Shown one piece after another: positions 1 through 39,701 of a stretch of 64,000 bases of DNA (position 1 is the stretch's first letter; every line of letters starts with the position of its first letter). Under the pieces are notes generated by a model that did no database searches, was not told where the DNA came from, and was given only the letters and a program-made list of their open reading frames with translations. The translations under genes were made by a program, and so were the position numbers. The DNA comes from a virus. Taxonomy: Duplodnaviria; Heunggongvirae; Uroviricota; Caudoviricetes. The stretch spans positions 1-64,000 of the IMG/VR virus record IMGVR_UViG_3300037071_003200; one strand, written 5' to 3'.

Positions 1-146
1 CCGCGGCCGCCCGACCGCCCGCCTCGCGCGGCCGCCCGACCGCGGCCCGGGCGGACCGTGCGAAGACCGCCGCGGCGGCGGTCGTCCCGGCCTCGCGGCG
101 GCGGTCGAGTCCGCCCGCGGCGGCGGCGGCCGTCCCGTACGCGGGC

Positions 147-175
147 AAAAAAAGAGGCCGCCTCGCGGCGGCCTC
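147..175 (-). terminator. Rho-independent terminator downstream of the acidic-protein gene (minus-strand transcript)
   Basis: Perfect 9-bp stem GAGGCCGCC / GGCGGCCTC (154-162 / 167-175) with loop TCGC. An A7 run at 147-153 reads as a U7 tract after the hairpin on the minus-strand transcript. Confidence 0.6.
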
Positions 176-190
176 GTTCGGTCCGACTCT

Positions 191-206
191 CCAGGCACGG
201 GACTCC
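191..206. repeat. Left arm of a 16-bp perfect inverted repeat (CCAGGCACGGGACTCC) flanking the acidic-protein gene
   Basis: Exact reverse complement of 1175-1190. The two arms bracket gene 223..1128. Confidence 0.7.
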
Positions 207-222
207 AGAACGGTCTAGCGGT

Positions 223-1128
223 CTAGCTGTCGGACTCGTCCGCGGCCTCGTCGGCCTCGTCGTCGTCCGTCGTCCCGGCCGCGAGAATCACGGCCTGGAT
301 CGTCGTCGGCCCGTGCTCTTCCGCGAGGCGGAGGACCGCCAGCGCGATGCCGACGACCGTCGTCCGCGGGACGTTGTACTCGGTCACGAGGCCGCGGAAG
401 ATCGAGTCCGTCGGCCCGTTCGCGAGTTCTACCGCGGCGGCCGATGCCGTCGCGACAGTGTCGGCCCGACGGGACTCGTCGGCCTCGGACTCGTCGGCCT
501 CGTCGGCCTCGTCGTCGTCCGCCTCGTCGTCGTCGTCGTCCGTCGTCGTCGTGCCGCTACCGCCGCCGCCCGACCGGTTAGTCGGGAAGGCCGCCTCGCA
601 CCGTGCGAGAAGGTCCTCGCGGTCGGGCGGTAGCGCGTTACCGTCGTCGTCCGTCCCGGCCTCTTCGACGGCCTCGCGGTAGACCTCGCGGACGAGGTCT
701 TCCGCCGCCGCCCGGTCCTCGTCCGTCGTCTTCGACGACAGGGACGAGAGTCCGCGGTAGAGGTAGGACAGGGACGTAACGAGCGTTCCAGGGACAAGAT
801 CGTCCCCTAGAACCTTCGCGACCGCGCCAGCGTTCTGCCAGCGGTACAACGTCCCGTTCGGCTTGCCCGGGATCATCGTCCGACCGTATTCCCTCCAGTC
901 GTCCGTCCCGATGCCCGCCGTCTTCGCGAGGCTAACGCCCGCGGCCTTCGCGGCCGCGAACTCGATCTTCGCACTGTCCAGCGCCATGCCTGCCTGGACC
1001 TCGAAGACGGCCGCCTCGCGGTCGGCCTTCGCGTAGACCTGCGCGATGCCCGACAGTGCGGACTCGATCAGGGACGCGATTCCCGCGAACGCGATCTTCG
1101 CGGCGTTCTTGTAATCGTTCTTGTTCAT
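223..1128 (-). CDS. Highly acidic protein with two poly-Asp/Glu tails (possible DNA-mimic or anti-restriction-like protein)
   Basis: 301-aa ORF with a GGAG ribosome-binding site 4 nt upstream of the ATG at 1128. Internally duplicated halves each end in a D/E tract (TTTTDDDDDEADDDEADEADESEADES and TTDDDEADEAADESDS) encoded by GAC/GAG/GCC trinucleotide repeats. Followed by terminator 147-175. Confidence 0.65.
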   Translation of the reverse strand: MNKNDYKNAAKIAFAGIASLIESALSGIAQVYAKADREAAVFEVQAGMALDSAKIEFAAAKAAGVSLAKTAGIGTDDWREYGRTMIPGKPNGTLYRWQNAGAVAKVLGDDLVPGTLVTSLSYLYRGLSSLSSKTTDEDRAAAEDLVREVYREAVEEAGTDDDGNALPPDREDLLARCEAAFPTNRSGGGGSGTTTTDDDDDEADDDEADEADESEADESRRADTVATASAAAVELANGPTDSIFRGLVTEYNVPRTTVVGIALAVLRLAEEHGPTTIQAVILAAGTTDDDEADEAADESDS

Positions 1129-1174
1129 GGGACTCCATTCGGAAGTGAGGCCGCGAAGAGGCGGCCTCGGATGA

Positions 1175-1190
1175 GGAGTCCCGTGCCTGG
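1175..1190. repeat. Right arm of the 16-bp inverted repeat (GGAGTCCCGTGCCTGG)
   Basis: Reverse complement of 191-206. Immediately preceded by hairpin GAGGCCGC-GAAGAG-GCGGCCTC (1147-1168). Confidence 0.7.
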
Positions 1191-1377
1191 ATTGTCAAAG
1201 ACCGATGATGCTGGACCCGATACGCGGCGGACTCGTTCGGCCGCCGCCGTTCTGCGATCCACTAGGGACTCTAGTCGAAGGGTCCGCCGTCGTCAAAGAG
1301 TCCCGATGAGAAGAGGCCGCCCGACCGCCTCGCGGCCCGTCGTCGAGCACGGGCGGCCCGACCGCGAGGCCGCCCGT

Positions 1378-1395
1378 CTTCTCAATATTGAGAAG
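1378..1395. promoter_or_regulatory. Perfect 18-bp palindrome CTTCTCAATATTGAGAAG
   Basis: Self-complementary about an AT-rich core. A related palindrome CTTCTCAGGACTGAGAAG occurs at 16717-16734. Confidence 0.4.
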
Positions 1396-1743
1396 AGGCC
1401 GCCGCCTCGGACGAGGGATCGCGGCCGCCCGTGCGGCGGCCGATGATCGTCGCATGAGACTAGACCCGTACCGCCTCGTCGGCCGCCTCGTCGCGGCCGC
1501 CGCGATCATCGCGGCCGCGGTCTACTGGATCACTCTGTAGACCGCCCGTCCGTCCGTGCGAGGCCGCCCGCGAGGCGGCCTCGTTCGCGGTCCGCCCGGC
1601 CGCCCGCGAGGCGGTCGGCCTCGTCCGCGAGGCCGCCGCCGCGGCCGCGAACTCGTCCGCTCCCGATGGAGGCCGCGGCCGCCGCCGGCGCGCACGCCCC
1701 TCCGCAGTACACACCAGAAATTCGAGCTCACCCTGCTGCAAAC

Positions 1744-1820
1744 TGGCACTATGGTGCCGGAATGGTGCTAGAGTGGCACCACATGGCTCCGGAAAGTGGT
1801 ACCAAAGTGGCACCAGTGCA
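1744..1820. promoter_or_regulatory. Array of TGGCAC / GTGCCA half-site palindromes (candidate operator cluster)
   Basis: TGGCAC-TATG-GTGCCG at 1744-1759, GGTGC-TAGAGTG-GCACC at 1764-1780, GTGGTACCA at 1797-1805 and GTGGCACCAGTGCA at 1808-1820. Five or more half-sites in about 80 bp directly upstream of small early genes and the two RHH genes. Confidence 0.45.
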
Positions 1821-1872
1821 TCAGCCTCCCTCACCAGCTGCTCTTCCGGCAGATACGGATTGGGCGCCGGCG

Positions 1873-1992
1873 ATGGTCTACCGGGAGCGGATGCTGGAAG
1901 ATCAGCTGCGCGCGATGCAGGCCGAGAGGGACTTCCTGCGGGGAGTGGTGACGGCGCTGGTCGAGCGCAGAGGGCCGGTGAGGCTGACGTGA
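1873..1992 (+). CDS. Small hypothetical protein (start uncertain)
   Basis: ATG at 1873 in the frame of ORF 1666..1992 (MVYRERMLEDQLRAMQAERDFLRGVVTALVERRGPVRLT). The upstream part of that ORF overlaps the operator array, so a downstream start was chosen. Confidence 0.3.
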   Translation: MVYRERMLEDQLRAMQAERDFLRGVVTALVERRGPVRLT

Positions 1993-2213
1993 CATACAGG
2001 TCGGATCCTGGTGGGTGGCGTTCAGCACGGGCGTCGGCGCGGCAGGCAGCGATGGCGCAGCTGATCCAGAGGCATCGAGAAGAATTCGATCGGCTGCACG
2101 CCGATGAGCGCGAGGCGCGGGGGTTGCCGCGTGACCTGAGCGCTTCGAGTGACGTCTCGCATCTGCGTGCACGCATCCGCGAGCTCGAGGCCGAGCTGAA
2201 GGTGTTGAGGTGA
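1989..2213 (+). CDS. Small hypothetical coiled-coil protein (start uncertain: GTG at 1989 or ATG at 2052)
   Basis: GTGA overlap with the preceding stop. The C-terminal part QLIQRHREEFDRLHADEREARG...IRELEAELKVLR looks like a real helical protein. Confidence 0.35.
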   Translation: MTYRSDPGGWRSARASARQAAMAQLIQRHREEFDRLHADEREARGLPRDLSASSDVSHLRARIRELEAELKVLR

Positions 2214-2404
2214 GCAAATCCGTGCGCCTGAAGGACTACCTGGCGGACGAGCTCGAGAAGATCGCGGCGCGCGAGAATCGGTCTCTCACGAACCTTGTGA
2301 ACCATCTTCTGGAGCAGGCGATCGAGATGGAGCGGGCGATGCGCAAGAGTGAGGAGCGGCTCAGCCAGGGGCTCTTCCTTCCGAGTCAGACGGAGGGCTC
2401 GTAG
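2210..2404 (+). CDS. Ribbon-helix-helix (Arc/MetJ/CopG-like) DNA-binding protein
   Basis: 64 aa. RLKDYLADELEKIAARENRSLTNLVNHLLEQAIE matches the RHH beta-strand plus two-helix pattern. ATGA overlap with the upstream gene. Confidence 0.7.
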   Translation: MSKSVRLKDYLADELEKIAARENRSLTNLVNHLLEQAIEMERAMRKSEERLSQGLFLPSQTEGS

Positions 2405-2688
2405 TGCCGAGTGTGAATCTGCGGTTGTCGGACGCCCAGCACGCGGAGTTGGTCAAGGCGGGGCAGCTCGAGAACCGATCGCTCCAGCGCGAGATCATCC
2501 ATCGCTTGTTCCACCAAGGATCGGGGGCTGGACTCTCCGGTGTAGACCAAGGCGGATCGAAGAGGCCGCCGGTCGAACCGCCGGCCCCCGGTGTTCAGGC
2601 TGATTCGCAGGCGCGCGATGTGCAGGCGAGGACGATCGTGCCGGGGGAGATCAAGTCGGACTTCAAGCCGGAAAGGAAGCGCAAGTGA
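2404..2688 (+). CDS. Second ribbon-helix-helix DNA-binding protein
   Basis: N-terminus NLRLSDAQHAELVKAGQLENRSLQREIIHRLF has the same RHH pattern as the preceding gene, followed by a disordered tail. Confidence 0.6.
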   Translation: MPSVNLRLSDAQHAELVKAGQLENRSLQREIIHRLFHQGSGAGLSGVDQGGSKRPPVEPPAPGVQADSQARDVQARTIVPGEIKSDFKPERKRK

Positions 2689-2990
2689 GCGAGCATCTGG
2701 ATGAGCCACTGCTCGAGCCGCTGGAGATTCGTGACGCCGGGGATGTGAACGCGGTGATCCGTGAACGCGGGGGAGCGATGGCGTTTCGTCCTCACTCGTT
2801 TGGGGAGACCGAGGAGGATGATCTGATCGAACCGCTGATGGTGCGGATCGTCGACCAGGTCGGAGATCGTCTGCTTATTCGCCTGCAGGTGGACACGCTC
2901 AATGGCGAGATGGTGAGCTCGGTGATCATGAAGCCTGGAGATCTCCAGGATCTGCTCGACGTGGCGATGACCCCGGTGGCGACAGGATGA
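2685..2990 (+). CDS. Hypothetical acidic protein
   Basis: 101-aa ORF, ATGA-coupled to its neighbours. Confidence 0.45.
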   Translation: MSEHLDEPLLEPLEIRDAGDVNAVIRERGGAMAFRPHSFGETEEDDLIEPLMVRIVDQVGDRLLIRLQVDTLNGEMVSSVIMKPGDLQDLLDVAMTPVATG

Positions 2991-3091
2991 ACTTCGACCA
3001 CCGTCACCCCGACAACGTGTTCATCGCGATCGTCGCGGTGTGTATGTGCATCGGGATTCCCCTGGGCCTTCTTCTGGCGTGGCTGTCATGA
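2987..3091 (+). CDS. Small membrane peptide (34 aa)
   Basis: MNFDHRHPDNVFIAIVAVCMCIGIPLGLLLAWLS is one hydrophobic helix. ATGA overlaps on both sides. Confidence 0.35.
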   Translation: MNFDHRHPDNVFIAIVAVCMCIGIPLGLLLAWLS

Positions 3092-3180
3092 GCTGGTTGA
3101 TCCCATTCGCCGCCGGGGCGCTGTTCGGGATCCTCATCACCCCAGCGATCAACGAGTTCTTCCGAAAGGACGACGAATGA
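3088..3180 (+). CDS. Small membrane peptide (30 aa)
   Basis: MSWLIPFAAGALFGILITPAINEFFRKDDE. ATGA overlaps on both sides. Confidence 0.35.
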   Translation: MSWLIPFAAGALFGILITPAINEFFRKDDE

Positions 3181-3371
3181 CGAAGCAGGCAGTCGAAGTG
3201 ACGGTCGACGAGGTGCGGCTGTTCCTATACGAGAAGCTCTTCCACGAGTACCAGGGAGAGAACGTGGAGTCTCCGCGAGCGTTCGTCGGGCTGCAGGGCG
3301 ACAAGGTCGTCCTCATGCAAACGGGCGGGGAGCCTCTGGTTGTCCTGGTGAAGACGGCGGTGATGGCGTGA
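3177..3371 (+). CDS. Hypothetical protein
   Basis: 64-aa ORF, ATGA-coupled to RtcB. Confidence 0.45.
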   Translation: MTKQAVEVTVDEVRLFLYEKLFHEYQGENVESPRAFVGLQGDKVVLMQTGGEPLVVLVKTAVMA

Positions 3372-4684
3372 GCGTCACGATTTTCGGTGAGCCCGATCCC
3401 GGTGCTGTCGCGCAGATCGAGAACGTCATGCGCGACGAGCGAGCCCAGGAAGGTGCGCTCATGGCTGACCACCACCTCGGCTACTCGATGCCGATCGGTG
3501 GCGTTGTCGCCTACCAGGACGCGATCTCTCCTTCTGGCGTCGGCTACGACATCGCCTGCGGGAACATGGCCGCGCGAACCGTCCTCACCCGCTCCGATCT
3601 CGTGGACGATCTGAAGCCGCTCATGCGTCAGATCCAGAAGAAGGTCGCCTTCGGCATGGGCCGACGAAACGACGAGCCCTACGACCACGCGCTCTTCGAC
3701 GACGAGTTGTGGAAGACCGAGGAGCTTTCGCCGATCCTGGACAAGGCGCGAGCGCAGCTGGGAACCGTCGGCTCGGGCAATCACTACGTCGACCTACTCG
3801 TCGATAGCGAGGACCGCGTCTGGGTTGCGAACCACTTCGGCTCTCGAGGCTTCGGACACACGGTCGCCACGCTGTTCATGAAGCGCGCCTACGGGCTCGC
3901 CGACGACGCTCGCTTCACCGAGACCGACGAGCCCGCCGTCCTCGACATCGGCACCTACAACGGTGACCTCTACGTCTCCGCGATGGAGCTCGCTGGCAAG
4001 TACGCCTATGCCGGTCGCGAGTACGTCATGGACCAGGTCGTGCGCGAAGTCCTCGGAACCGAGATCGACTTCTCCGTGCACAACCATCACAACTACGCCT
4101 GGCACGAAGACGATCGCTGGGTTGTGCGCAAGGGCGCCACGCCGCTCGAGCTGGAACCCGCCTTCATCGGTGGCTCGATGGGCGACGTGTCCGTGATCGT
4201 GCGAGGGAAGCCCGACGTCGGATTCGAGGATGGCCACGTGTACGGGGTGGATGACATCGGCGCACTGGGCTCTGCTCCACATGGCGCCGGTCGAGTCATG
4301 TCGCGCACGAAGGCGGCCGGGAAGATCCGGAAGATGTGGTACTGCCCGAATCGCAACTGCGACTTCGAGCCCTTCCGGGCGATGGACAACCTCGTCGCCA
4401 CCTCCGGTCTTGAGAACGGCAAGTGCCCCCGCTGCGGAATTCCGGTGCGCAAGGGCCGGATGCGCGACACCGCGGACGCGGCCATCGACTGGGACGCGGT
4501 GCGAGCCGATCTGGGCTCTCGCGGGATCGCAGTCCTTGGCGCCGGCGCCGACGAAGCGCCGGGCGTCTACAAGGACCTCACCAGCGTGATCGCCGCCCAC
4601 TCGAACATCGAGGTGCTGCACACCCTGCACCCGATCGGCGTCGTCATGGCTGGCTCCGACGTCTTCGATCCGTACAAAGACTGA
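3368..4684 (+). CDS. rtcB: RtcB-family RNA ligase (tRNA repair/splicing ligase) with an inserted zinc ribbon
   Basis: 438 aa. RtcB signatures are MADHHLGYSMPIGGVVAY, GYDIACGNMAART, HNHHNYAWHED and SAPHGAGRVMSR. A Cys4 ribbon (CPNRNCDF...KCPRCG) is inserted near the C-terminus. Confidence 0.85.
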   Translation: MSVTIFGEPDPGAVAQIENVMRDERAQEGALMADHHLGYSMPIGGVVAYQDAISPSGVGYDIACGNMAARTVLTRSDLVDDLKPLMRQIQKKVAFGMGRRNDEPYDHALFDDELWKTEELSPILDKARAQLGTVGSGNHYVDLLVDSEDRVWVANHFGSRGFGHTVATLFMKRAYGLADDARFTETDEPAVLDIGTYNGDLYVSAMELAGKYAYAGREYVMDQVVREVLGTEIDFSVHNHHNYAWHEDDRWVVRKGATPLELEPAFIGGSMGDVSVIVRGKPDVGFEDGHVYGVDDIGALGSAPHGAGRVMSRTKAAGKIRKMWYCPNRNCDFEPFRAMDNLVATSGLENGKCPRCGIPVRKGRMRDTADAAIDWDAVRADLGSRGIAVLGAGADEAPGVYKDLTSVIAAHSNIEVLHTLHPIGVVMAGSDVFDPYKD

Positions 4685-4899
4685 TGGATGCCCAGGGGCG
4701 ACTTGATTTCTACAACCGCTTCATGGAGGCCTTCTCCGAAGCGCTCGCTGGGCGACGTATTCTTGAGCTGTCCGACGACGAGCTCTACGTCCTGCAGGAC
4801 TTCCTGTGGGCCGCGACTGACGACGTCGTATCCGAATGGGCACGACGAGAGATGCGGAAGCGATCCCCGTTTCCGCCCGTAGAAAGGGAGACCCTATGA
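4684..4899 (+). CDS. Hypothetical protein
   Basis: ATG at 4684 overlaps the rtcB stop (TGATG). 71 aa. Confidence 0.45.
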   Translation: MDAQGRLDFYNRFMEAFSEALAGRRILELSDDELYVLQDFLWAATDDVVSEWARREMRKRSPFPPVERETL

Positions 4900-5195
4900 G
4901 CACGCTCAAGCGGCAGGGAGACATCCTGCTGGAGAAGGTCCACCTTGCGGTGGATCCGCTCAAGCGCGTCGTCGAGGACGGCGTCATCGCTCGCGGAGAG
5001 GTGACGGGTCATGCGCATCGCGTGGAGGGCGGTGTCCTGGTGCACACGAACCGCGGCATGGCGGTCGTCTCCGACGGAGAGACCACGGTCACCCACGACG
5101 AGCACTCCTCGCTCGAGCTGGAAGAGGGAATCTGGCTCGTTCACCGCCAGGTCGAGTACGTCGGCCCTGGCGAGGAAGTCGGGGTGTACGACTGA
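4896..5195 (+). CDS. Hypothetical protein
   Basis: ATGA overlap. MSTLKRQGDILLEKVHLAVDPLKRV..., 99 aa. Confidence 0.45.
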   Translation: MSTLKRQGDILLEKVHLAVDPLKRVVEDGVIARGEVTGHAHRVEGGVLVHTNRGMAVVSDGETTVTHDEHSSLELEEGIWLVHRQVEYVGPGEEVGVYD

Positions 5196-11609: not shown

Positions 11610-11682
11610 GCCAGCTAGTTCAATGGTTAGAACACCTCACCTGATGTGGAGGAAATCCTTGGTTCGATTCCAGGGGCTGGCT
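11610..11682 (+). tRNA. tRNA gene, anticodon probably GAT (Ile); the anticodon stem has a bulge or mismatches
   Basis: Acceptor stem GCCAGCT/GGCTGGC pairs over 7 bp. T-arm CTTGG-TTCGATT-CCAGG is canonical. D-stem GTTC/GAAC with loop AATGGTTA. The anticodon loop reads CCTGATG, but the anticodon stem CCTCA/TGGAGG is imperfect. No encoded CCA. Confidence 0.55.
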
Positions 11683-11689
11683 CTCTCAT

Positions 11690-11758
11690 GCGGCTGCGTA
11701 CTGGGTACCGAGTCGATTCTAAACCGGCCTCGGGCGGGTTCGATCCCCGTCAGCCGCT
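11690..11758 (+). tRNA. Non-canonical tRNA-like gene with a truncated D-arm; anticodon loop reads TTCTAAA (possible CUA amber-suppressor anticodon)
   Basis: Acceptor stem GCGGCTG/CAGCCGC is perfect. T-arm GCGGG-TTCGATC-CCCGT is canonical. Putative anticodon arm GTCGA-TTCTAAA-CCGGC has a 4-bp stem plus an A.C closing pair. The D region is only about 13 nt (GTAC-TGG-GTAC). Total length 69 nt. Confidence 0.35.
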
Positions 11759-11795
11759 CTTGATGTAGTCCTGCCGTTCATCTAACCTCGGAAGC

Positions 11796-11867
11796 CGCGG
11801 GCGACTCGGTCGGAGCAGAGGGTGCGCTCATAACGCACAGAACCGGGTTCGACTCCCGGGCCCGCTA
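11796..11867 (+). tRNA. tRNA-Met (anticodon CAT)
   Basis: Anticodon arm GTGCG-CTCATAA-CGCAC is perfect with U33. T-arm CCGGG-TTCGACT-CCCGG is perfect. Acceptor stem CGCGGGC/GCCCGCT has 6 bp plus a C1.T72 mismatch. Discriminator A. Confidence 0.7.
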
Positions 11868-11871
11868 CTCG

Positions 11872-13463: not shown

Positions 13464-13659
13464 CTCCTACGGTGGCACGAAGATCAAACGGCCCAGGTGG
13501 GCCATCAAAGAGCTGTGGCCCTGGGATGGGCCAGACAGGCTGTCTCTGTGGGAGCGCTGGCACGCCGATCCCAAGCGCCTCGGCCTCGAGCCCGAGCCTC
13601 TTCTATGGTGGGAGACCGACGTGGTGAGAAAGGAAGAAGAGTGGCCGCTGGCAGCGTGA
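13453..13659 (+). CDS. Hypothetical small protein overlapping the putative TerS end
   Basis: ATG at 13453 in the frame of ORF 13408..13659. MTTDSYGGTKIKRPRWAIKELWPWDG..., 68 aa. Confidence 0.3.
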   Translation: MTTDSYGGTKIKRPRWAIKELWPWDGPDRLSLWERWHADPKRLGLEPEPLLWWETDVVRKEEEWPLAA

Positions 13660-15284
13660 AAGAACGCGAGGAGATGCGCCAGGCCTTGCGCCAGGAGATC
13701 GTCGATCGCAAGGTCTCGGATGAGGCCGAGCGTCTCGGCCAGTCGTTGAGTGCCTTCGTCAGGGAGGCGTGGCCGCACGTCAAGAAGCACGAGCAGTACC
13801 GGCACAACTGGCACCTCGACGCGATCAACATTCACCTGGAGGCCGTGAGCGCGGGCGAGATCCATCGCCTGCAGATCTGGGTCCCGCCGGGTTCGATGAA
13901 GTCGCTGTCGGTGTCCGTCTTCTGGCACGCCTGGGAGTGGACGACGCGGCCGTGGCTTCGCTACTGGTCGGCCTCGTACGAGACCCGCCTGGCGGGACGT
14001 CTCTCGGCGATGGCCCGCGACCTCATGCTGGAGCGCTGGTACCAGGAGCGCTGGGGCCCGCTCTTCAAGTTCAACCGCGACGCCGAGCACTACTACGGCA
14101 ACGACCAGGGCGGCACGCGCCTGGCGACGTCACCGGACTCGTCAGGAACCGGCGAGCACGGGCACCGCATCATCATCGACGACCCGATCAACGCAAAGGA
14201 CGCCGACGCCACCTCGAAGTCGACGCTTGACACCGTGAATGGGTGGTTCGATGGCACCGTCCCCTCGCGCGGTCTCGACGGAGTCCTCTCGCCTGACGGC
14301 GATATCATCGACCACGCCCGCGTCATCATCATGCAGCGCCTGCACGAGGACGACCTCGCTGCTCACGCCCTCGAGAACGATCGCGATTACGTCGTCCTGT
14401 GCATCCCGGAGCGCTACTACGCGGGCCATCCGTTCGCTTACCGCGGACAGGGCGGGCACACCTCGACTGAGGACCTCGGCTCGACGTTCGGGCCCGGAGA
14501 TCCGCGCATCGAGGACGAGCTGCTGTGGCCGGATCGCCGTTCCGAGAAGGCATCGGATGCGCTCAAGGCCCAGCTGAAGCATCGCGCCGCGGGTCAGCTC
14601 CAGCAGATGCCCGCGCCGAAGGAAGGCCAGTCGCTCCTGCGCTCGTGGTGGCGCTTCTACGATCCGAACCTCTTCAACGACGTGAAGCGCCGCCCCCGCT
14701 GCTCGATGGTCGTTCAGTCGATCGACTGCCCGCTCAAGGACAAGCAGACGAACGACATGATCTCGATCCAGGCCTGGGGCTGCAAGGGCGCCGATCGCTA
14801 CCTGATCGACATCCGCACGTCGCACATGAGTTACTCGCAGGCCAAGCGCGCCGTCATCGAGCAGGCGAGGTACGTCCGGGCGATGTACCCGAAGGCTCGC
14901 CAGAAGATCCTCATCGAGAACGGCGGCTACGGGCCCGAGCTCATCGTCGACCTGAAGCGCATCCTTACCGGCGTCGAAAAGGTCAGCCCAGCCTCGGAGG
15001 GCGACAAGGAGATCCGCGCCGACTCGGCTGCCGACGACCTGCAGGCGGGCAACGTCTGGTTGCCGGGGATCGGCGCCGGCGCCGATACGACACTGGGCCC
15101 GGCGGGCACCGTCTCCAAGGACATCAACGACTTCATCGAGTCGTGCGCGGTCTTCCCCCACGGCAAGCACGACGACGATGTCGACGCCTGGTCGCAGGCG
15201 ATGAACTGGCTGCGCTCGCAGATCATCATTCCCGGTCGCACTGGCAGTGCCTACAAGGGGATGCGCAAGCGGGTGGCGGCATGA
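13656..15284 (+). CDS. Terminase large subunit
   Basis: GTG at 13656 (GTGA overlap); an alternative ATG lies at 13674. ATPase motifs VPPGSMKS (Walker A-like) and IIIDDP (Walker B). C-terminal RNase H-like nuclease with acidic residues (ILIENGGYG, HGKHDDDVDAW). Confidence 0.85.
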   Translation: MKEREEMRQALRQEIVDRKVSDEAERLGQSLSAFVREAWPHVKKHEQYRHNWHLDAINIHLEAVSAGEIHRLQIWVPPGSMKSLSVSVFWHAWEWTTRPWLRYWSASYETRLAGRLSAMARDLMLERWYQERWGPLFKFNRDAEHYYGNDQGGTRLATSPDSSGTGEHGHRIIIDDPINAKDADATSKSTLDTVNGWFDGTVPSRGLDGVLSPDGDIIDHARVIIMQRLHEDDLAAHALENDRDYVVLCIPERYYAGHPFAYRGQGGHTSTEDLGSTFGPGDPRIEDELLWPDRRSEKASDALKAQLKHRAAGQLQQMPAPKEGQSLLRSWWRFYDPNLFNDVKRRPRCSMVVQSIDCPLKDKQTNDMISIQAWGCKGADRYLIDIRTSHMSYSQAKRAVIEQARYVRAMYPKARQKILIENGGYGPELIVDLKRILTGVEKVSPASEGDKEIRADSAADDLQAGNVWLPGIGAGADTTLGPAGTVSKDINDFIESCAVFPHGKHDDDVDAWSQAMNWLRSQIIIPGRTGSAYKGMRKRVAA

Positions 15285-16716: not shown

Positions 16717-16734
16717 CTTCTCAGGACTGAGAAG
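16717..16734. terminator. Palindromic hairpin CTTCTCAGGACTGAGAAG immediately after a stop codon
   Basis: 8-bp perfect arms starting 1 nt after the TGA at 16714-16716. There is no U-tract. It shares its arms with palindrome 1378-1395. Confidence 0.3.
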
Positions 16735-16869: not shown

Positions 16870-16943
16870 ATGCCCGCCCCGGGACTCGAACCCGGAAACC
16901 TCCGTTTCTGAGACGGAGTGCTATGCCGATTCGCTAGACGGGC
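16870..16943 (-). tRNA. tRNA gene (minus strand); anticodon loop CTCAGAA, giving anticodon CAG but a class-I short variable arm
   Basis: On the reverse complement, acceptor stem GCCCGTC/GGCGGGC (7 bp including a G.U pair), T-arm CCGGG-TTCGAGT-CCCGG perfect, anticodon stem TCCGT/ACGGA with an extra closing pair. The D-arm is poorly paired. Discriminator A. Confidence 0.55.
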
Positions 16944-16944
16944 A

Positions 16945-17014
16945 ATGGGGCCCCGAGGAATCGAACCTCGTCCTGTCGGGTTACAGCCGAGCATGCGCCA
17001 CTACACCAGGACCC
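16945..17014 (-). tRNA. tRNA gene (minus strand); anticodon loop CTGTAAC, giving anticodon GTA (Tyr-type) with a short variable arm
   Basis: On the reverse complement, acceptor stem GGGGTCC/GGGCCCC (7 bp), D-arm GTGT-AGTGGCGC-ATGC, T-arm CGAGG-TTCGATT-CCTCG perfect, discriminator A. Lies 1 nt from the neighbouring tRNA. Confidence 0.55.
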
Positions 17015-17216
17015 CGTGGGGGCTAGGGAAGGCGCAGATACAACCGGCGAACCACGGCGCGAGCGTATCGAGGAATGGGCGCCGGCGCAACCGTGGAAGC
17101 CTCCCGAAGGAGTGTCCCGTCCGCAGTTAGCGTCGGCGCCCGCATGCAGTCTAATCCGACCCGAGGGTGTATATTTACCTCTGTCCCGTTCGTAATCGAA
17201 CCGATGGAGGTTTGTG

Positions 17217-24502: not shown

Positions 24503-25245
24503 GACTCGTGGCTTCGATGATCGTGAAGGACGAGATGAAGCGCTACCTCCCGCTGGCGGTAGACCACCTCCTCACCTACGTCGACGAGATCCGCGTCCTC
24601 GATGACAGCTCAACCGACGGCACCTACGAGTACCTCGAAGCGAAGGACGGGGTGAACGTCATGCGCAACCCTGGGCCCGCCTTCTTCGAGCACGAGGGGA
24701 AGGCCCGGCAGTACCTCTACAAGTGGACGCTGCAGGGACTCCCGGACTACGTCCTGGCGATCGACGCCGACGAGTTCGTGACCGATCCGACGTACCTGCG
24801 TGCCGCGATGGAGCAGGGCGCACCCGTCTACACGCTCTCCCTCGTCGAGGCCTGGGCGGTGTCGAACCGTGGCATCGACATCCGGGTCGACGGTCTCTGG
24901 GGACCGCGCAAGATCCCGATCCTCTACCAGATCATCCGGCAATCTCGAAACTGGCGGATCGCGCAGAAGCAGCTCGCCTGCGGGCGCGAGCCGGAGCAGG
25001 TCATCCAACGAGCTCGTCGCGCAACTGCCTCGGGCTCCTCGGTCATCCACTTCGGATGGGCGAACGAGGCCGAGCGCACCGTGCGGGCACAGCGCTACTA
25101 CGACCACGACCAGGGCAAGTTCCATCAGAACCGTCACCTGCAGTCGATCCTCTGGGCAGACCGGCGGGTTCGGATGCGGCGCCTTCCCTGGCCGCCGAGC
25201 TTCGCCGAGCTCGAGGCCGGGCTCACGGCCGCTTCTCAGTCCTGA
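24499..25245 (+). CDS. Family-2 (GT-A) glycosyltransferase
   Basis: GTG start. MIVKDE...IRVLDDSSTDGT and DxD motif AIDADEF. Confidence 0.7.
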   Translation: MRLVASMIVKDEMKRYLPLAVDHLLTYVDEIRVLDDSSTDGTYEYLEAKDGVNVMRNPGPAFFEHEGKARQYLYKWTLQGLPDYVLAIDADEFVTDPTYLRAAMEQGAPVYTLSLVEAWAVSNRGIDIRVDGLWGPRKIPILYQIIRQSRNWRIAQKQLACGREPEQVIQRARRATASGSSVIHFGWANEAERTVRAQRYYDHDQGKFHQNRHLQSILWADRRVRMRRLPWPPSFAELEAGLTAASQS

Positions 25246-25287
25246 GAAGATCTACTCCGGCCGATCGCGGCGGTAGCCTCCGGCCAA

Positions 25288-25855: not shown

Positions 25856-26083
25856 GTGCCATGCGGGTGCGGTAAGAACGTCCCCCAACTCTCGGCTGAA
25901 GAAGTGGCCGCTCGTGCGGAGCGTCAGCAGATCGCCAGAGAGCAGCAGCTTGCGATGCGTGCGGAGCGCATCGCGGCGCGGGAGAAGAAGCGTGAGGCAT
26001 CGGAGCAGCTCCGGCGCGAACGCCGTGAACGTCTGCTCCAGGTTCGTGCGGAGCGTGCAGCCGTGAACAGGCAGCAGCCCTAG
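25856..26083 (+). CDS. Hypothetical basic coiled-coil protein
   Basis: 75-aa ORF rich in R/E/A. Confidence 0.4.
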   Translation: MPCGCGKNVPQLSAEEVAARAERQQIAREQQLAMRAERIAAREKKREASEQLRRERRERLLQVRAERAAVNRQQP

Positions 26084-27984
26084 TGGCAGTACCTCTTCGT
26101 CTCATCCCGCAGCGCCCACGCAGCGTCACCGCGTCCGCGGTGAAGATGACGCCGAAGACGACCTCGACGTTCCGCACGCGCAAGGGGCAGGCCTGGCAGA
26201 AGAAAGCGTTCCTCTTCTCCAAGATCATCCCCGAGCTCAACTACGCCTCGCGCTTCTACGCGAAGATGCTCACGAGGCTGCGCATCTACCCCGCCTTCCG
26301 CAATCCCTCGGACGAGACGACGCCGATCACCGAGGGCCCGCCGGTCGATCTTCTCGATCGCATCCAGGACCCCGGCGGGGGTCGCTCCGGGCTCCTCTCG
26401 TCGTACGGCCGGCTCATGTTCATCATCGGCGAGGGCTACCTCTTCGGTCGTGACCTCGACAAGCCGACCGAGCGCTGGGCCTTCGTCAACACCGAGGAGA
26501 TCTCCTTCGACGGCAAGGCGATCCTGTGGACGCCGACGTCGTCGGCCGAGCCCATCCGCTTCTCACCGTCGCAGGCCGAGGCGTACAGGATGTGGAATCC
26601 GGATCCCGAGTTCTCCGGCGAGGCCGAGTCTCCGATGCGGGCGATCATCGAGATCGCGCAGGAGCTCGACATCCTCACCAAGGCCGTCGCCTCGACGGCC
26701 GTCTCGCGCATGGTCAACGGCATCCTCAAGGTTCCGGCCGAGCTGTCCTTCGGCTCCGAGGAGCCCGGTATCGACGAAGACCCCGAGGCGAACCCGTTCC
26801 TGGCCGACTGGATCGAGCACATCATCGGGATCATCGAGAACGCCGGTTCCCCCGAAGCAGGGGCACCGTTCCTGGCCGAGGGAGCTCTGGAGTATCTCGC
26901 CGGCCTCGAGTGGATGAAGACCCATGATCCGGCGACGGACTACATGGAGCAGGCGATGCGCCGGGAGGCGATCGACCGTGCCGCGATGGGCATGGACCTT
27001 CCACCGGAGATCCTCAAGGGCATGGCCGAGGCGAACCACTGGGGCGCTCGCCAGATCATGCACGACACCTGGCGCTCCCACGGCGCCGTCGTCGCCGAGC
27101 AGTTCTGCGACGACCTCGCCGATGCGTACCTGCGCCCCGCCCTGCGGGATGCGGGCTTCGATCGCTGGCGCGAAGTGGTAGTCGCCTACGACGACTCGAA
27201 CGTCGTTGTTCCTCCCGACCGTACCGACGATGCCGACAAGGCTCACGATCGCGGTCAGGTGAACGATCCGGGCTATCGCACGATGAAGGGCATCCCGGAG
27301 TCGATGGCTCCCTCCGAAGAGGAGATGCGGATCAATCTCGCCATCCAGCTGCACGAGCCAGCCCTTCTGAAGGGCACGCGCTTCGAGATCGAGGAGCCGG
27401 AGCCCGCAGCGTTGCCGCCCGGCCCCGTCCCGACGACCGACGCGCCGCAGGATGCCGAGGAAGGGCCGCCAGCGCCGGGACCAGCCGGAACGTCTCGTCA
27501 GGAGTCTCGCGCCTCGATCGTCCAGGTCAACGGCGCCGCTTCCCTCGCGCTCATTCGTTGCCGCGAAGTCGCCGGCGCGAAGATCCGTCAGGGGATCCGC
27601 ACCAAGTCACGCGGGGCGGTAGAGCTGGGGATGATCGACGGGATTCCGAACGCCGACGTCGCCTGCACTCTCGGCGAGGACCGGATCAGGGCTCTTGGTC
27701 TTCCGCAGCCACTCGAGCTCGTTAAGTCGGGCACCGACGGCTTCTGCTCGCTGCTTCGTTCCTGGGACTTCGACGACCCTGGCGCACGGGTGCTCGCGGA
27801 AATGCTCCTTGTGTTCGCAGCGAAGTCGCTGTATGACAAGGAAGTCCCGAAGCTGCCAGCTGGGTTCCTCGCCCAGGTGGAACGCCTGAAGGAACTGACC
27901 GAGGAGAAGATCGTGAGTCAGAACAACGATTCCCTGGCGATCATGGAGGAGATGCTCGGTGGCGTCAGGATCAAGGGAGGCTGA
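26083..27984 (+). CDS. Portal protein
   Basis: 633 aa. GTG start (TAGTG overlap). Size and position after the terminase and before the head proteins fit a portal. Sequence is not low-complexity. The call is not motif-verified. Confidence 0.65.
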   Translation: MAVPLRLIPQRPRSVTASAVKMTPKTTSTFRTRKGQAWQKKAFLFSKIIPELNYASRFYAKMLTRLRIYPAFRNPSDETTPITEGPPVDLLDRIQDPGGGRSGLLSSYGRLMFIIGEGYLFGRDLDKPTERWAFVNTEEISFDGKAILWTPTSSAEPIRFSPSQAEAYRMWNPDPEFSGEAESPMRAIIEIAQELDILTKAVASTAVSRMVNGILKVPAELSFGSEEPGIDEDPEANPFLADWIEHIIGIIENAGSPEAGAPFLAEGALEYLAGLEWMKTHDPATDYMEQAMRREAIDRAAMGMDLPPEILKGMAEANHWGARQIMHDTWRSHGAVVAEQFCDDLADAYLRPALRDAGFDRWREVVVAYDDSNVVVPPDRTDDADKAHDRGQVNDPGYRTMKGIPESMAPSEEEMRINLAIQLHEPALLKGTRFEIEEPEPAALPPGPVPTTDAPQDAEEGPPAPGPAGTSRQESRASIVQVNGAASLALIRCREVAGAKIRQGIRTKSRGAVELGMIDGIPNADVACTLGEDRIRALGLPQPLELVKSGTDGFCSLLRSWDFDDPGARVLAEMLLVFAAKSLYDKEVPKLPAGFLAQVERLKELTEEKIVSQNNDSLAIMEEMLGGVRIKGG

Positions 27985-29533: not shown

Positions 29534-30146
29534 CGAGCTTCACCCGCCCCTCATAGAGAGCCTCGCGCCGTTGCCGGTCGAGCTCTCGCTGCACTCGTCG
29601 AACCCTCCGAACCCGTGGGCTGGATACAAACTCGCGTTGCAGCGTGGAGTCGAACTTCCAACGGAAGCCACCCATCTGTTGGTTCTTCAGGACGACGTCA
29701 TCGTCTGCGCCGACTTCCCGCTGGCGGTAACCGCGGCGATCGAGGAGCGCCCCGAGCAGGTCTTGAGCCTGTGGGTCGGCGCTCTCCCCGGCCGCACGCG
29801 CAAGGACTTCTGGATCGCCCAGGGGAAGCGAGAGCGCTGGTCACGGGTGTATTTCCGCGACATCTGTCACGTCGTCGGCCTCGTCTGGCCGCGCCCCCTC
29901 GCTGAAGACTTCCTCGAGTGGACGTCAGATCATCGTCTGCCTGGTGACTGCCGCCAGGTTCAGAGTGACGATGCCATCGTCGGAGCCTGGATGCGCCGAA
30001 CGCATCAGACCGTTTGGGCTTGCGTGCCTTCTCTGGTCGAGCACAACGACGACGTCGAATCGACGATTGGGCGGCCAAGAGGTGACAAGGGCCGGAGAGC
30101 GATCGCGTTCATCGACTCCCCAGCCCCTGAGTCACAGCTGACCTGA
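29493..30146 (+). CDS. Hypothetical protein with a DxD-like motif, possibly glycosyltransferase-like (start uncertain: TTG at 29493 or GTG at 29508)
   Basis: ...HLLVLQDDVIVCADF... 217 aa. Overlaps the end of the previous gene. Confidence 0.4.
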   Translation: MQIQVVVQAHPSRSELHPPLIESLAPLPVELSLHSSNPPNPWAGYKLALQRGVELPTEATHLLVLQDDVIVCADFPLAVTAAIEERPEQVLSLWVGALPGRTRKDFWIAQGKRERWSRVYFRDICHVVGLVWPRPLAEDFLEWTSDHRLPGDCRQVQSDDAIVGAWMRRTHQTVWACVPSLVEHNDDVESTIGRPRGDKGRRAIAFIDSPAPESQLT

Positions 30147-30149
30147 CCC

Positions 30150-30620
30150 AACCGCACCAGGCCCAGCCATAGCCGGTCGTGCCATTCCAGACCCCAGCAG
30201 AACTAGCCTTGCCCGACCGAGCCATGCCCAACCCAGCCCTGCCTTGCCGAACCTCACCTCACCGCACACCACCAGACCGCAGCGCAGCTCACCTGAGCGC
30301 GCCCACGCCAGAACGAACCAGAACCCGGCTCACCTCATCACGCCTGACCCTGCCGGACCGTACCCGTCCTTGCCCCAGCCGAGCTCGCCCAGCCAAGCCG
30401 AACCACAGCGCACCGAATGCGACCGCGCCGCGCCCGGCCAGACCACAGCGTGCCTAACCGAACCCTTGCATAACCGACCGCGCCATACCCCACCAGGCCT
30501 CACCTCAGCCCACCGTATCCGACCCTGTCGTACCAGGACCCGCCTTGCCGGACCCGACCCCGACCCACCGGAGCTTGGCCCACCCTGCCTCGACCAACCC
30601 GGCCATGCCACGTCCTACCG
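30150..30620. other. About 470-bp strongly G-depleted (C/A-rich) tract on the + strand
   Basis: Very few G over about 470 nt, with degenerate repeats of CCGAACC/GCCTTGCC/CCTCACC. Contains only proline-rich low-complexity ORFs (30179..30457, 30244..30648). On the minus strand it is G-rich with many GGG runs. Confidence 0.6.
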
Positions 30621-30628
30621 GGGCGGAT

Positions 30629-31267
30629 TCACGCTTCCTTCGTGGTGAAGGAAACAACTGCGAAACGCCCGTACGTCGGCCGCATGTCGGCCAAGCCGAT
30701 CACGCGACCCGCGAGCGTCAGGATGTCAAGGAAGTCCATCGGCGCCACGTACTCGGGCAGCAGCACTGAGAAGTCGAACGTCGCCTTCCAGCCAGCATTG
30801 AAGGCAGGCCGACGACGTGTGATCCCCGCTCTCTGGACGGTGACACGGCGTGCGTCGATGAAGTCCCAGTTCGCCTTGCCGAGCGATGCCAGCTCGGTGA
30901 GCGGTGCGATCGCCGCCTTGTAGAGATCCATCGCCGACTTCCGCGGGGAGCGCGGGTCCTGCCGGAACTTCGCAGCGTTGATCATCGCGCCGTGGACGTA
31001 GACACCGGGGATTGCGATCTTCCCCTTCTCATCGCGGTAGACGTAGCTCTCCACGTCGTCCGTCTTCTTGGCGGTGCTGCCCTTCTTCGCCGCGGCCTTC
31101 GCATCTACGGACTCTGTGTTCCATCGGTGCCAGAGGATGGGCGTCACTCCCTCGAGCGTGAACGTGCAGACGAACGGATACTCGTATGCGATCAAGCCAT
31201 CTGCGCCGGGGCTTACTCCGGCGAGAACTTCCGACTGACCATTGCGTGAGCGGGCCGTCGTAGCCAT
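30629..31267 (-). CDS. Reverse-oriented hypothetical protein (213 aa) embedded in the head-gene module
   Basis: ATG at 31267 preceded by ribosome-binding site GGAGAGGAAGG. It is the only long ORF on either strand here, with high GC at third codon positions. The ORF-track entry 30629..33316 is this gene plus an antisense read-through of the capsid gene. Confidence 0.55.
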   Translation of the reverse strand: MATTARSRNGQSEVLAGVSPGADGLIAYEYPFVCTFTLEGVTPILWHRWNTESVDAKAAAKKGSTAKKTDDVESYVYRDEKGKIAIPGVYVHGAMINAAKFRQDPRSPRKSAMDLYKAAIAPLTELASLGKANWDFIDARRVTVQRAGITRRRPAFNAGWKATFDFSVLLPEYVAPMDFLDILTLAGRVIGLADMRPTYGRFAVVSFTTKEA

Positions 31268-31310: not shown

Positions 31311-31328
31311 GAGGTGCCCCGGCACCTC
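31311..31328. promoter_or_regulatory. Perfect inverted repeat GAGGTGCC-CC-GGCACCTC in the divergent intergenic region
   Basis: 8-bp arms. Shares the GGTGCC/GGCACC half-site with the 1744-1820 array. Confidence 0.4.
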
Positions 31329-31356: not shown

Positions 31357-31385
31357 TTGACGCCGTCCGACGACCTGCGTACTCT
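31357..31385 (+). promoter_or_regulatory. Candidate sigma-70/SigA-type promoter for the capsid operon
   Basis: TTGACG (31357-62), a 17-bp spacer, then TACTCT (31380-85), about 90 nt upstream of the capsid ATG. Confidence 0.3.
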
Positions 31386-31477
31386 CCTCTCACCTCGGTT
31401 ACCGCATAGCGGTTCTGAGCCAGCGGAGCTCCATAGGACTCCGACGCCACTGGTGTCGAGTCAGAAGGAGATCCGAA

Positions 31478-34982: not shown

Positions 34983-39701
<4,719 letters not shown>

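Follow-up and report, generated by a model that had tools for sequence, protein, structure and literature searches.

Which protein reads the cluster of short inverted repeats at positions 1744-1815 of this phage DNA, and does that protein control anything beyond the neighbouring genes? The 64-kb stretch analysed here (positions 1 to 64,000 of IMG/VR record IMGVR_UViG_3300037071_003200, called the window below) is part of a ~101-kb contig of an uncultured tailed phage, and the cluster lies in the 740-bp divergent intergenic region that separates its leftward and rightward arms. A first, sequence-only reading had described four or five inverted half-site pairs and had proposed that one DNA-binding protein, possibly one of two ribbon-helix-helix (RHH) proteins encoded downstream, coordinates these genes with the capsid operon. 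We lean towards reading the array as the multi-site operator of an RHH repressor encoded ~600 bp downstream, with the second RHH protein (RHH2) as the putative binder, which would autorepress a predicted rightward promoter. The operator part of the earlier proposal was supported, as the repeat type switches with the presence of RHH2 and the array covers a -10-like element, whereas its capsid part was not.

The array was resolved into seven tandem 8-bp pseudo-palindromic boxes with the consensus TGGYRCCA, starting at 1744, 1752, 1763, 1774, 1784, 1797 and 1808 (spacings of 8, 11, 11, 10, 13 and 11 bp). Using a matrix built from the array boxes (score on the better strand, cut-off for strong sites 9.5 bits), box 1 (TGGCACTA, 1744-1751) scored 11.3 bits and box 2 (TGGTGCCG, 1752-1759), 8 bp after it, 11.0 bits. 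Box 3 (TGGTGCTA, 1763-1770; 12.6 bits) overlaps the -10-like element, boxes 4 and 7 (both TGGCACCA, at 1774-1781 and 1808-1815) scored highest with 13.6 bits each, box 6 (TGGTACCA, 1797-1804; 13.4 bits) is a perfect palindrome, and box 5 (TGGCTCCG, 1784-1791) is degenerate with 5.7 bits. The sequences quoted previously were all located, namely TGGCAC-tatg-GTGCCG at 1744-1759, GGTGC-N7-GCACC at 1764-1780, TGGTACCA at 1797-1804 and GTGGCACCAGTGCA at 1807-1820, and are better described as seven boxes than as half-site pairs. A repeat finder also detected a ~33-bp tandem duplication within the array (1751-1782 versus 1783-1816), in which box 5 is the counterpart of box 2, and Tandem Repeats Finder reported a period of 11 with 3.9 copies (consensus AGTGGCACCAA).

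The array is real and lies far beyond chance. TGGYRC/GYRCCA matched nine times in its 80 bp compared to a window mean of 0.22, and six sites of at least 9.5 bits fell within 80 bp, compared to at most three in 30 shuffles. The next-best cluster (four matches, at 38321) was rejected as a second array because it is a Gly-X-Y coding repeat of a collagen-like protein. Outside the array, 20 strong boxes were found where 15 +/- 4 were expected in the window; these are isolated, and all but one lie in coding DNA. No second cluster was detected in the 64-kb window nor in a further ~10 kb from the leftward arm of this phage (loci L075, L079 and L080). A dispersed regulon of the stoperator kind was not apparent, as the site did not recur at other promoters in the window and these three loci, with ~25 kb of the ~101-kb genome lying outside them. 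A literature search on the box sequences and on the capsid-side palindrome discussed below returned nothing relevant.

An extended -10-like element, TGC-TAGAGT (TGCTAGAGT, 1766-1774, + strand; hexamer TAGAGT at 1769-1774), was read directly from the sequence inside the array, and a rightward promoter is predicted there with transcription starting near 1781. Taking this start, the boxes would span approximately -37 to +35. A single GTGCAKC-type box (AGTGCATCAGC, 1815-1825, + strand), which is proposed as the site of the first RHH protein (RHH1) and has base 1815 in common with box 7, would lie at approximately +35 to +45. Two conserved blocks flank the array on the + strand, each unique in the window. 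Block A (GTACACACCAGAAATTCGAGCTCACC, 1707-1732) was kept in all seven aligned relatives and may be an upstream promoter element, while block B (CCTCACCAGCTGCTCTTCC, 1829-1847) lies in the predicted leader and contains CCTCACC(A/T)GC, invariant across the alignment of relatives.

About 100 bp downstream of the -10-like element begins a run of translationally coupled small genes on the + strand, which overlap start-to-stop (1989/1992, 2210/2213, 2404 and 2685/2688). The first (1873-1992, 39 amino acids) is called in public assemblies and has homologues in L090, L091, L123 and L125; its protein matched no family in Pfam or PHROG searches. The second (1989-2213) encodes 74 amino acids from GTG 1989 or 53 from ATG 2052, its product had no credible family match, and its stop overlaps the start of RHH1. 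The two tandem RHH genes named in the sequence-only reading follow, and their assignment was confirmed by Pfam, PHROG, family and Arc-structure matches, so that the RHH fold expected of this repressor class is encoded at the array locus. RHH1 (2210-2404, 64 amino acids, ribbon KSVRLKDY) matched Pfam RHH_5 (E=9e-6; 25.8 bits, 0.2 bits below the curated cut-off of 26) and PHROG Arc-like repressors (E ~5e-5). RHH2 (2404-2688, 94 amino acids) carries the ribbon PSVNLRLS and a basic C-terminal tail, and is the proposed TGGYRCCA binder. Within its family, 13 of 14 members matched the TraY RHH domain (best E 1.3e-5), six of 14 a FitA-like RHH and six of 14 Arc, and the family profile matched the P22 Arc structures 1baz and 1arq (E 0.05-0.6) with MPSVNLRL aligned to MPQVNLRW. 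By these profile matches, RHH2 classifies as an RHH protein resembling Arc. The RHH2 profile gave no match in GTDB genomes.

Twelve public contigs of this phage carry an identical copy of the region, with no variation among them, so that more distant relatives were needed for comparison. Cultured phages in INPHARED gave no match by megablast or blastn of 1-5000 and 1130-3400, nor by tblastn with the RHH1 or RHH2 N-domains, so that no cultured relative could serve as a source of annotation. Relatives were reached via RHH1 and RHH2 homologues and their contigs, and eight genomes were compared (the window, L123, L130, L138, L090, L091, L122 and L125). A scan of JGI metagenomes with the RHH1 profile yielded just two useful loci, L129 and L130. 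No relatives were obtained from IMG/VR with the 301-amino-acid leftward protein, RHH1 or the RHH2 profile, and all 30 matches there to an exact 16-mer of block B were due to chance. An RtcB search of IMG/VR returned 74 loci, none syntenic and none with an array; RtcB is a mobile gene here.

All eight genomes have a common layout, in which a leftward gene of ~280-304 amino acids and an intergenic region of ~600-750 bp are followed by block A (CAATACACACCAAATTTCGAGCTCACC), a repeat array containing TANNNT, an AGTGCA(T/G)CAGC box, block B (CCTCACCAGC) and the operon. Within this layout the type of repeat differs. TGGYRCCA boxes were found in the window (seven), L123 (four), L130 (eight) and L138 (eight), each with a short RHH1 and RHH2, while the other four genomes encode one long RHH protein and carry three copies of GTGCATCRG (L090 and L091), ~6 copies of TGCAGC(A) (L125) or GATGCA..GTGCTTCA units (L122). 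The TGGYRCCA array thus occurs together with RHH2 in four of four genomes versus none of four (Fisher p ~0.014 if the genomes are treated as independent). In terms of the ribbon, TGGYRCCA accompanied only PSVNLRLS, so that site sequence co-varies with ribbon as in the RHH class, in a small and partly non-independent sample. The TGCTA(G/T/C)(A/G)GT equivalent of the extended -10 was kept in every TGGYRCCA array (hexamers TAGAGT in L123, TGCTATAGT in L130 and TGCTATGGT in L138), and TANNNT in every other array (TGATACAGT in L091, TAGGGT in L090, TATGCT in L122 and TAGTAT in L125).

The boxes themselves would suit a symmetric reader. T1, G3 and C6 are invariant, changes fall mainly at the degenerate centre, and this centre is TG, CA or TA in 18 of 19 boxes; at one position L130 has TGGTGCCA where L138 has TGGCACCA, its exact reverse complement. 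Such changes respect dyad symmetry, which fits a two-fold symmetric dimer. The pair of boxes 1 and 2 at 8-bp spacing recurs in L123, L130 and L138, as do box 3 (TGGTGCTA) at the equivalent place and the 8/11-bp spacing pattern, in line with the adjacent short sites of the RHH class. Compared to L123, the array of the window has one extra 34-bp unit.

The protein side changes in step with the boxes. The long RHH protein (87-111 amino acids; for example L090 5001-5318, with the same architecture in L091, L122 and L125) combines the ribbon SK(S/P)VR(L/I)K with a basic tail at its C-terminus, ADSQxRDVxART...KPDPKPERKKK. In the TGGYRCCA genomes it is replaced by a short, tail-less RHH1 with the same ribbon plus RHH2, which has the different ribbon MPSVNLRL(S/T)D followed by the tail of the long protein, an arrangement that looks like the insertion of a new RHH domain into the former long gene. 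By tblastn, the RHH2 N-domain was found only in the window, L123, L126, L129, L130 and L138; L126 and L129 encode both RHH1 and RHH2, and their promoters lie off the contig, so that they neither support nor contradict the model. For the leftward protein, by comparison, identity reaches 93% for the window and L091 and 80% for L123 and L122, although the arrays differ within each pair. The array type is therefore independent of this neighbour, which implies two or more independent exchanges of the module of array plus RHH2. Whatever the array, the RHH1 ribbon stays the same, an AGTGCA(T/G)CA(G/T)C box stands beside block B in all eight, and in the genomes with a single long RHH the GTGCAKC-type box is repeated three to six times and makes up the whole array. 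The GTGCAKC box and the KSVRLK ribbon thus occur together in 8/8 genomes, suggesting that the conserved box belongs to RHH1 and the variable TGGYRCCA boxes to RHH2.

Under the favoured autorepression model, rightward transcription would start at the promoter with the extended -10 inside the array, and the operon would yield the 39- and 53/74-amino-acid proteins and then RHH1 and RHH2 from the translationally coupled genes. One RHH2 dimer would bind each 8-bp dyad box, with N and R of the ribbon PSVNLRLS at contact positions 4 and 6 as in P22 Arc. The ribbon would lie in the major groove over the YR centre of the TGGTGCCATGGTGCCG duplex, and N5 and R7 would come to lie on the GG/CC arms. Dimers on neighbouring boxes, at 8- or 11-bp spacing, are predicted to bind cooperatively until all seven boxes are filled, with RHH1 probably occupying the adjoining AGTGCATCAGC box. 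The filled array would exclude RNA polymerase and thereby close a loop of negative autoregulation.

Several observations weigh against this model. The co-variation comes from eight genomes that are phylogenetically non-independent, and L130 and L138 are close relatives (98% in RHH1). The form of RHH1 (short or long) changes along with the array, so that a role of RHH2 is inseparable from a role of short RHH1 or of RHH1 and RHH2 together. The proposed promoter consists of a consensus -10 only, with no -35 present, and a consensus promoter scan gave no call. The box spacing is irregular and box 5 is weak. The window's own RHH2, searched alone, gave no Pfam match, and its AlphaFold monomer was poor (pLDDT 60, no strand), which is expected for an obligate dimer and uninformative.

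An alternative explanation is that the array is an operator read by something else, i.e. short RHH1, a hetero-complex of RHH1 and RHH2, one of the operon's other small proteins or a regulator of the host. RHH1 lacks its C-terminal tail in exactly the TGGYRCCA genomes, the boxes and the RHH1-type box have a common GTGC/GCAC core (GCAC is read by the CopG ribbon; PMC3413123), and the 39- and 53/74-amino-acid proteins have no assigned function. We nevertheless consider this unlikely, as the specificity-setting ribbon of RHH1 is the same across entirely different arrays, the 39-amino-acid protein of the window resembles its L090 counterpart more than its L123 counterpart, the 301-amino-acid protein does not co-vary with array type, and a host factor fails to explain why box type tracks a phage gene. 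That the array is functionless debris of replication slippage or tandem duplication is very improbable: the recent ~33-bp duplication relative to L123 and the variation from four to eight boxes among relatives would fit, but T1, G3 and C6 are invariant although the flanking proteins are just 47-48% identical, the array type is tied to a gene, and its position on the -10 is fixed. The non-coding position, where relatives differ by the 34-bp indel and by wholly different repeats between conserved blocks A and B, was counted for the operator reading. Iterons of a replication origin or packaging sites (pac/cos) would suit the point where leftward and rightward transcription diverge, beside GC-rich repeats and hairpins at 1400-1700; the repeat type also varies among relatives as iterons do with their initiators, and the G+C content of the array (57-59%) is the lowest of the local region. 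This explanation is improbable all the same. A G+C content of 57% is still high and there is no AT-rich unwinding region, the adjacent genes include no initiator, helicase loader or small terminase (the large terminase subunit lies 12 kb off), and none of the 10 nearest genes matched a replication family. Iterons are typically longer than 8 bp, and the array overlies a conserved -10-like hexamer and changes type with an RHH gene that resembles a transcription factor. In two ~100-kb relatives it lies at different distances from the contig ends, with nothing to put it at a genome end.

Two further readings concern promoters, here and at the capsid gene. Boxes 11 bp apart mimic the GG-N10-GC of sigma-54-type or tandem promoters, and TGGTACCAAAGTGGCA is two mismatches from TGGCAC-N5-TTGCW. 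The window, however, contains 19 matches of that quality versus 18.6 expected, of which the array holds one (with two mismatches), and relatives with the same flanks carry GTGCAKC repeats lacking GG-N10-GC. The capsid promoter and the leftward promoter-like site are of sigma-70 type; the nearest cultured relatives are actinophages, and two of three metagenome-assembled genomes with a related capsid belong to Actinomycetota, a phylum not known to have sigma-54. A sigma-54 function is thus hardly credible, and the sequence-only reading was right to dismiss it given chance-level matches and unrelated repeats in relatives, although its argument that no -12 element exists was partly wrong, since with 11-bp spacing the next box supplies GC at the -12 distance (e.g. 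TGGTACcaaagTGGCA). The same reading had proposed that one protein binds both the array and a palindrome near the capsid gene, coupling operon and capsid expression. The perfect palindrome is indeed present at 31311-31328 (GAGGTGCCCCGGCACCTC); it is intergenic, unique in the window as GGTGCC-N2-GGCACC (one found, 0.1 expected), has the GGTGCC/GGCACC hexamer in common with the boxes, and its two 8-mers are 8 bp apart, as are boxes 1 and 2. As an echo of the array it fared poorly. Its 8-mers scored -0.8 and 3.2 bits compared to 5.7-13.6 for the array boxes, because both lack T1 and have a base other than the usual A at position 8; at least as good a score was reached by 143 pairs in the window. 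In L127 (one and the same 103.9-kb contig as L090), where TGGYRCCA boxes and RHH2 are both missing, the palindrome is 100% conserved, and L128 retains the capsid promoter and leader but has neither the palindrome nor the reverse gene. The palindrome lies 43 nt upstream of the start of that gene (30629-31267, - strand; PHROG 4652), and the absence of the two together indicates that the palindrome belongs to the reverse-gene module. It lies ~30 bp upstream of the -35 of the well-conserved, sigma-70-type capsid promoter (TTGACG 31357-31362, 17 bp, TACTCT 31380-31385). Chance-level occurrence of the motif within coding regions had been named in advance as the outcome that would speak against a regulon, and the scan described above gave this outcome, with no excess of boxes elsewhere in the window. 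We therefore see only a very slight chance that such a regulon exists.

Three other assignments of the array were rejected. An open reading frame at 1666-1992 spans it, but the frame is broken in relatives by the 34-bp indel and by unrelated repeats; public gene calls begin at 1873. As an RNA element the array had no Rfam match and fold z-scores of just -1.8 and -2.1, and no homologous sequence was usable for a covariation test. A partition centromere of the ParG/ParR type was discarded as no ATPase is encoded among the downstream genes, where RtcB is the next recognisable one; a PHROG 'partition protein' match of RHH1 covers the RHH part only.

A bolder version of the autorepression model is a composite operator, with RHH2 on the seven TGGYRCCA boxes side by side with RHH1 on the abutting GTGCAKC box. 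Here the ribbon domain and its matching boxes would form a specificity cassette that is exchangeable between phages. It would have arisen when a new RHH domain entered an older, long RHH gene and split it into a short RHH1 and an RHH2 that kept the old tail. We offer this only tentatively and regard it as rather unlikely in full. If true, nature would here have done what Zampini and Hayes engineered with ribbon swaps and chimeric sites (PMC3413123), and related phages would have a means to escape each other's repressors.

The locus heads the rightward arm of the genome. From 1873 to ~63,000 nearly every gene lies on the + strand, and the arm headed by the array continues through RtcB (3368-4684) to the terminase large subunit (13641-15284), portal (26083-27984) and capsid (31478-33289), all on the + strand. 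On the - strand, the 301-amino-acid gene (223-1128) heads a long leftward arm of small genes that include ArdC-like and Ku genes. The region had previously been called early, which it is not in any obvious way. The capsid is only ~35% identical to those of Arthrobacter, Gordonia and Microbacterium phages and has ~1000 relatives in soil metagenomes. A capsid profile matched three metagenome-assembled genomes in GTDB (two Actinomycetota and one Acidobacteriota), a weak hint on the host, which probably belongs to Actinomycetota.

The remainder of the divergent region (1140-1700) is a field of GC-rich hairpins and direct repeats, with units GAGGCCGCC/GGCGGCCTC, three 22-nt copies at 33-36 bp spacing in 1558-1648 and a G+C content of 86-87% in 1550-1700. 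Relatives have the same kind of field at this place with different units, and it is a candidate origin or structural element. A leftward sigma-70-like promoter (TTGACG-17-TAGAGT, 1268-1296, - strand) points toward the 301-amino-acid gene, with equivalents in L138 (TTGACG-17-TAGTGT) and L091 (TTGACG-17-TATAAC), and a conserved TTGTCAAAG block was seen at 1192-1200.

At the capsid side, a possible extended -10 on the - strand (TGATAACGT, 31345-31337) would place the GAGGTGCCCCGGCACCTC palindrome at approximately +2 to +20 of the reverse transcript, and the palindrome may be an operator or a 5' hairpin. The ~85-nt capsid leader after the promoter (31357-31477 region) is almost invariant at 79-89% capsid identity and may be structured or a target of regulation. 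Between convergent genes at 30150-30630 lies a 480-bp non-coding stretch that is C-rich and G-poor on the + strand and consists of degenerate CC-rich short repeats; the GC skew of -0.19 for 30001-31000 is the extreme of the window.

A different palindrome, the perfect 18-bp CTTCTCA-N4-TGAGAAG, is the real genome-wide repeat of this phage group. The window contains three exact copies (1378-1395, 16717-16734 and 25232-25249) plus one match with two mismatches, compared to 0.13 expected; 13 copies occur in ~11 kb of the same phage's leftward arm (L079 5118-16125), and five to eight in each of the relatives L090, L091, L122 and L138. Its arms are invariant and its central 4 nt variable, and most left-arm copies precede a start codon by at most ~30 nt, immediately 5' of the ribosome-binding site. 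The palindromes resemble the 17-bp dyad repeats of Cluster O mycobacteriophages (PMC4351075) and could be operators, promoter elements or RNA hairpins. Four tRNA genes were found at 11610-11868 and 16870-17015 (Ile-GAT and Met-CAT on the + strand, Leu-CAG and Tyr-GTA on the - strand), the second pair inside a 720-bp gap just past a CTTCTCA palindrome. An open reading frame of 1572 amino acids at 34983-39701 has long collagen-like Gly-X-Y repeats, which yield spurious motif clusters and defeat simple GC3 gene calling.

If the autorepression model is confirmed, the locus would provide a clean, testable pair of ribbon (PSVNLRLS) and box (TGGYRCCA), with KSVRLK and GTGCAKC as its sister pair in that scaffold family; both would be useful for the unsolved RHH ribbon-to-DNA recognition code and for orthogonal repressor design. 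The array would also mark where rightward expression is mainly controlled in a large group of uncultured ~100-kb soil phages, which probably infect Actinomycetota, a control point swapped as a module between phage lineages. The general concept would be unchanged, as RHH autorepressors on box arrays are textbook knowledge.

Similar to the situation proposed here, Arc of phage P22 at Pant (immI) is a small phage RHH protein encoded downstream of its presumed target promoter, and its operator overlaps the core promoter as predicted for the array. The Arc ribbon (MPQFNLRW) is nearly the same as the MPSVNLRL of RHH2, with N and R at contact positions 4 and 6 in both. P22 immI also employs two RHH proteins, Arc and Mnt. 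Arc, however, binds one 21-bp operator as two dimers, compared to seven 8-bp boxes of different sequence here, and it lacks a counterpart of the ~55-amino-acid basic C-terminal tail of RHH2. The similarity between RHH2 and Arc is weak (profile E=0.05), the RHH genes are tandem here and divergent in immI, and no antirepressor gene was recognised at this locus. As a separate observation, the L122 repeats at 3810-3860 contain AGAGTGCTTC twice, which we take to be 10 nt of the P22 Arc operator core (TAGAGTGCTTCTA); L122 has the RHH1-type ribbon only.

Filling of boxes and exclusion of RNA polymerase are normal behaviour of the RHH family, in which ribbon positions 2, 4 and 6 read the bases (PMC3413123). 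MetJ places one RHH dimer on each of its tandem 8-bp palindromic boxes, in an 8-bp register (PMC3413123), and its head-to-tail met-boxes have a parallel in boxes 1 and 2 and in several L130 and L138 pairs that are exactly 8 bp apart. In contrast, the met-box sequence differs (AGACGTCT), and MetJ needs the co-repressor S-adenosylmethionine and controls a dispersed regulon, compared to mixed 8/11-bp spacings at a single genome site here. ParG binds eight short boxes around or downstream of the -10 at OF of plasmid TP228 as cooperative RHH dimers, on direct or inverted sites, and represses its own synthesis (PMC3413123). Its boxes are 4-bp ACTC cores with AT-rich 4-bp spacers, unlike TGGYRCCA, and ParG is the centromere-binding partner of the ATPase ParF, whereas no ParA/ParF-like gene occurs in this operon. 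CopG of pMV158 and omega of pSM19035 are autorepressors of the RHH class; on repeated short motifs they polymerise across several turns of the helix. Omega binds 7-bp heptads. The CopG core GCAC (PMC3413123) is also the centre of TGGCACCA and TGGTGCCA, but the CopG ribbon KRLTITLS differs, and both proteins are regulators of plasmid copy number or partition. Overall, the system described here differs from these analogues by its box sequence, by mixing 8- and 11-bp registers, by the long basic tail on RHH2 and by having its RHH genes as a tandem pair.

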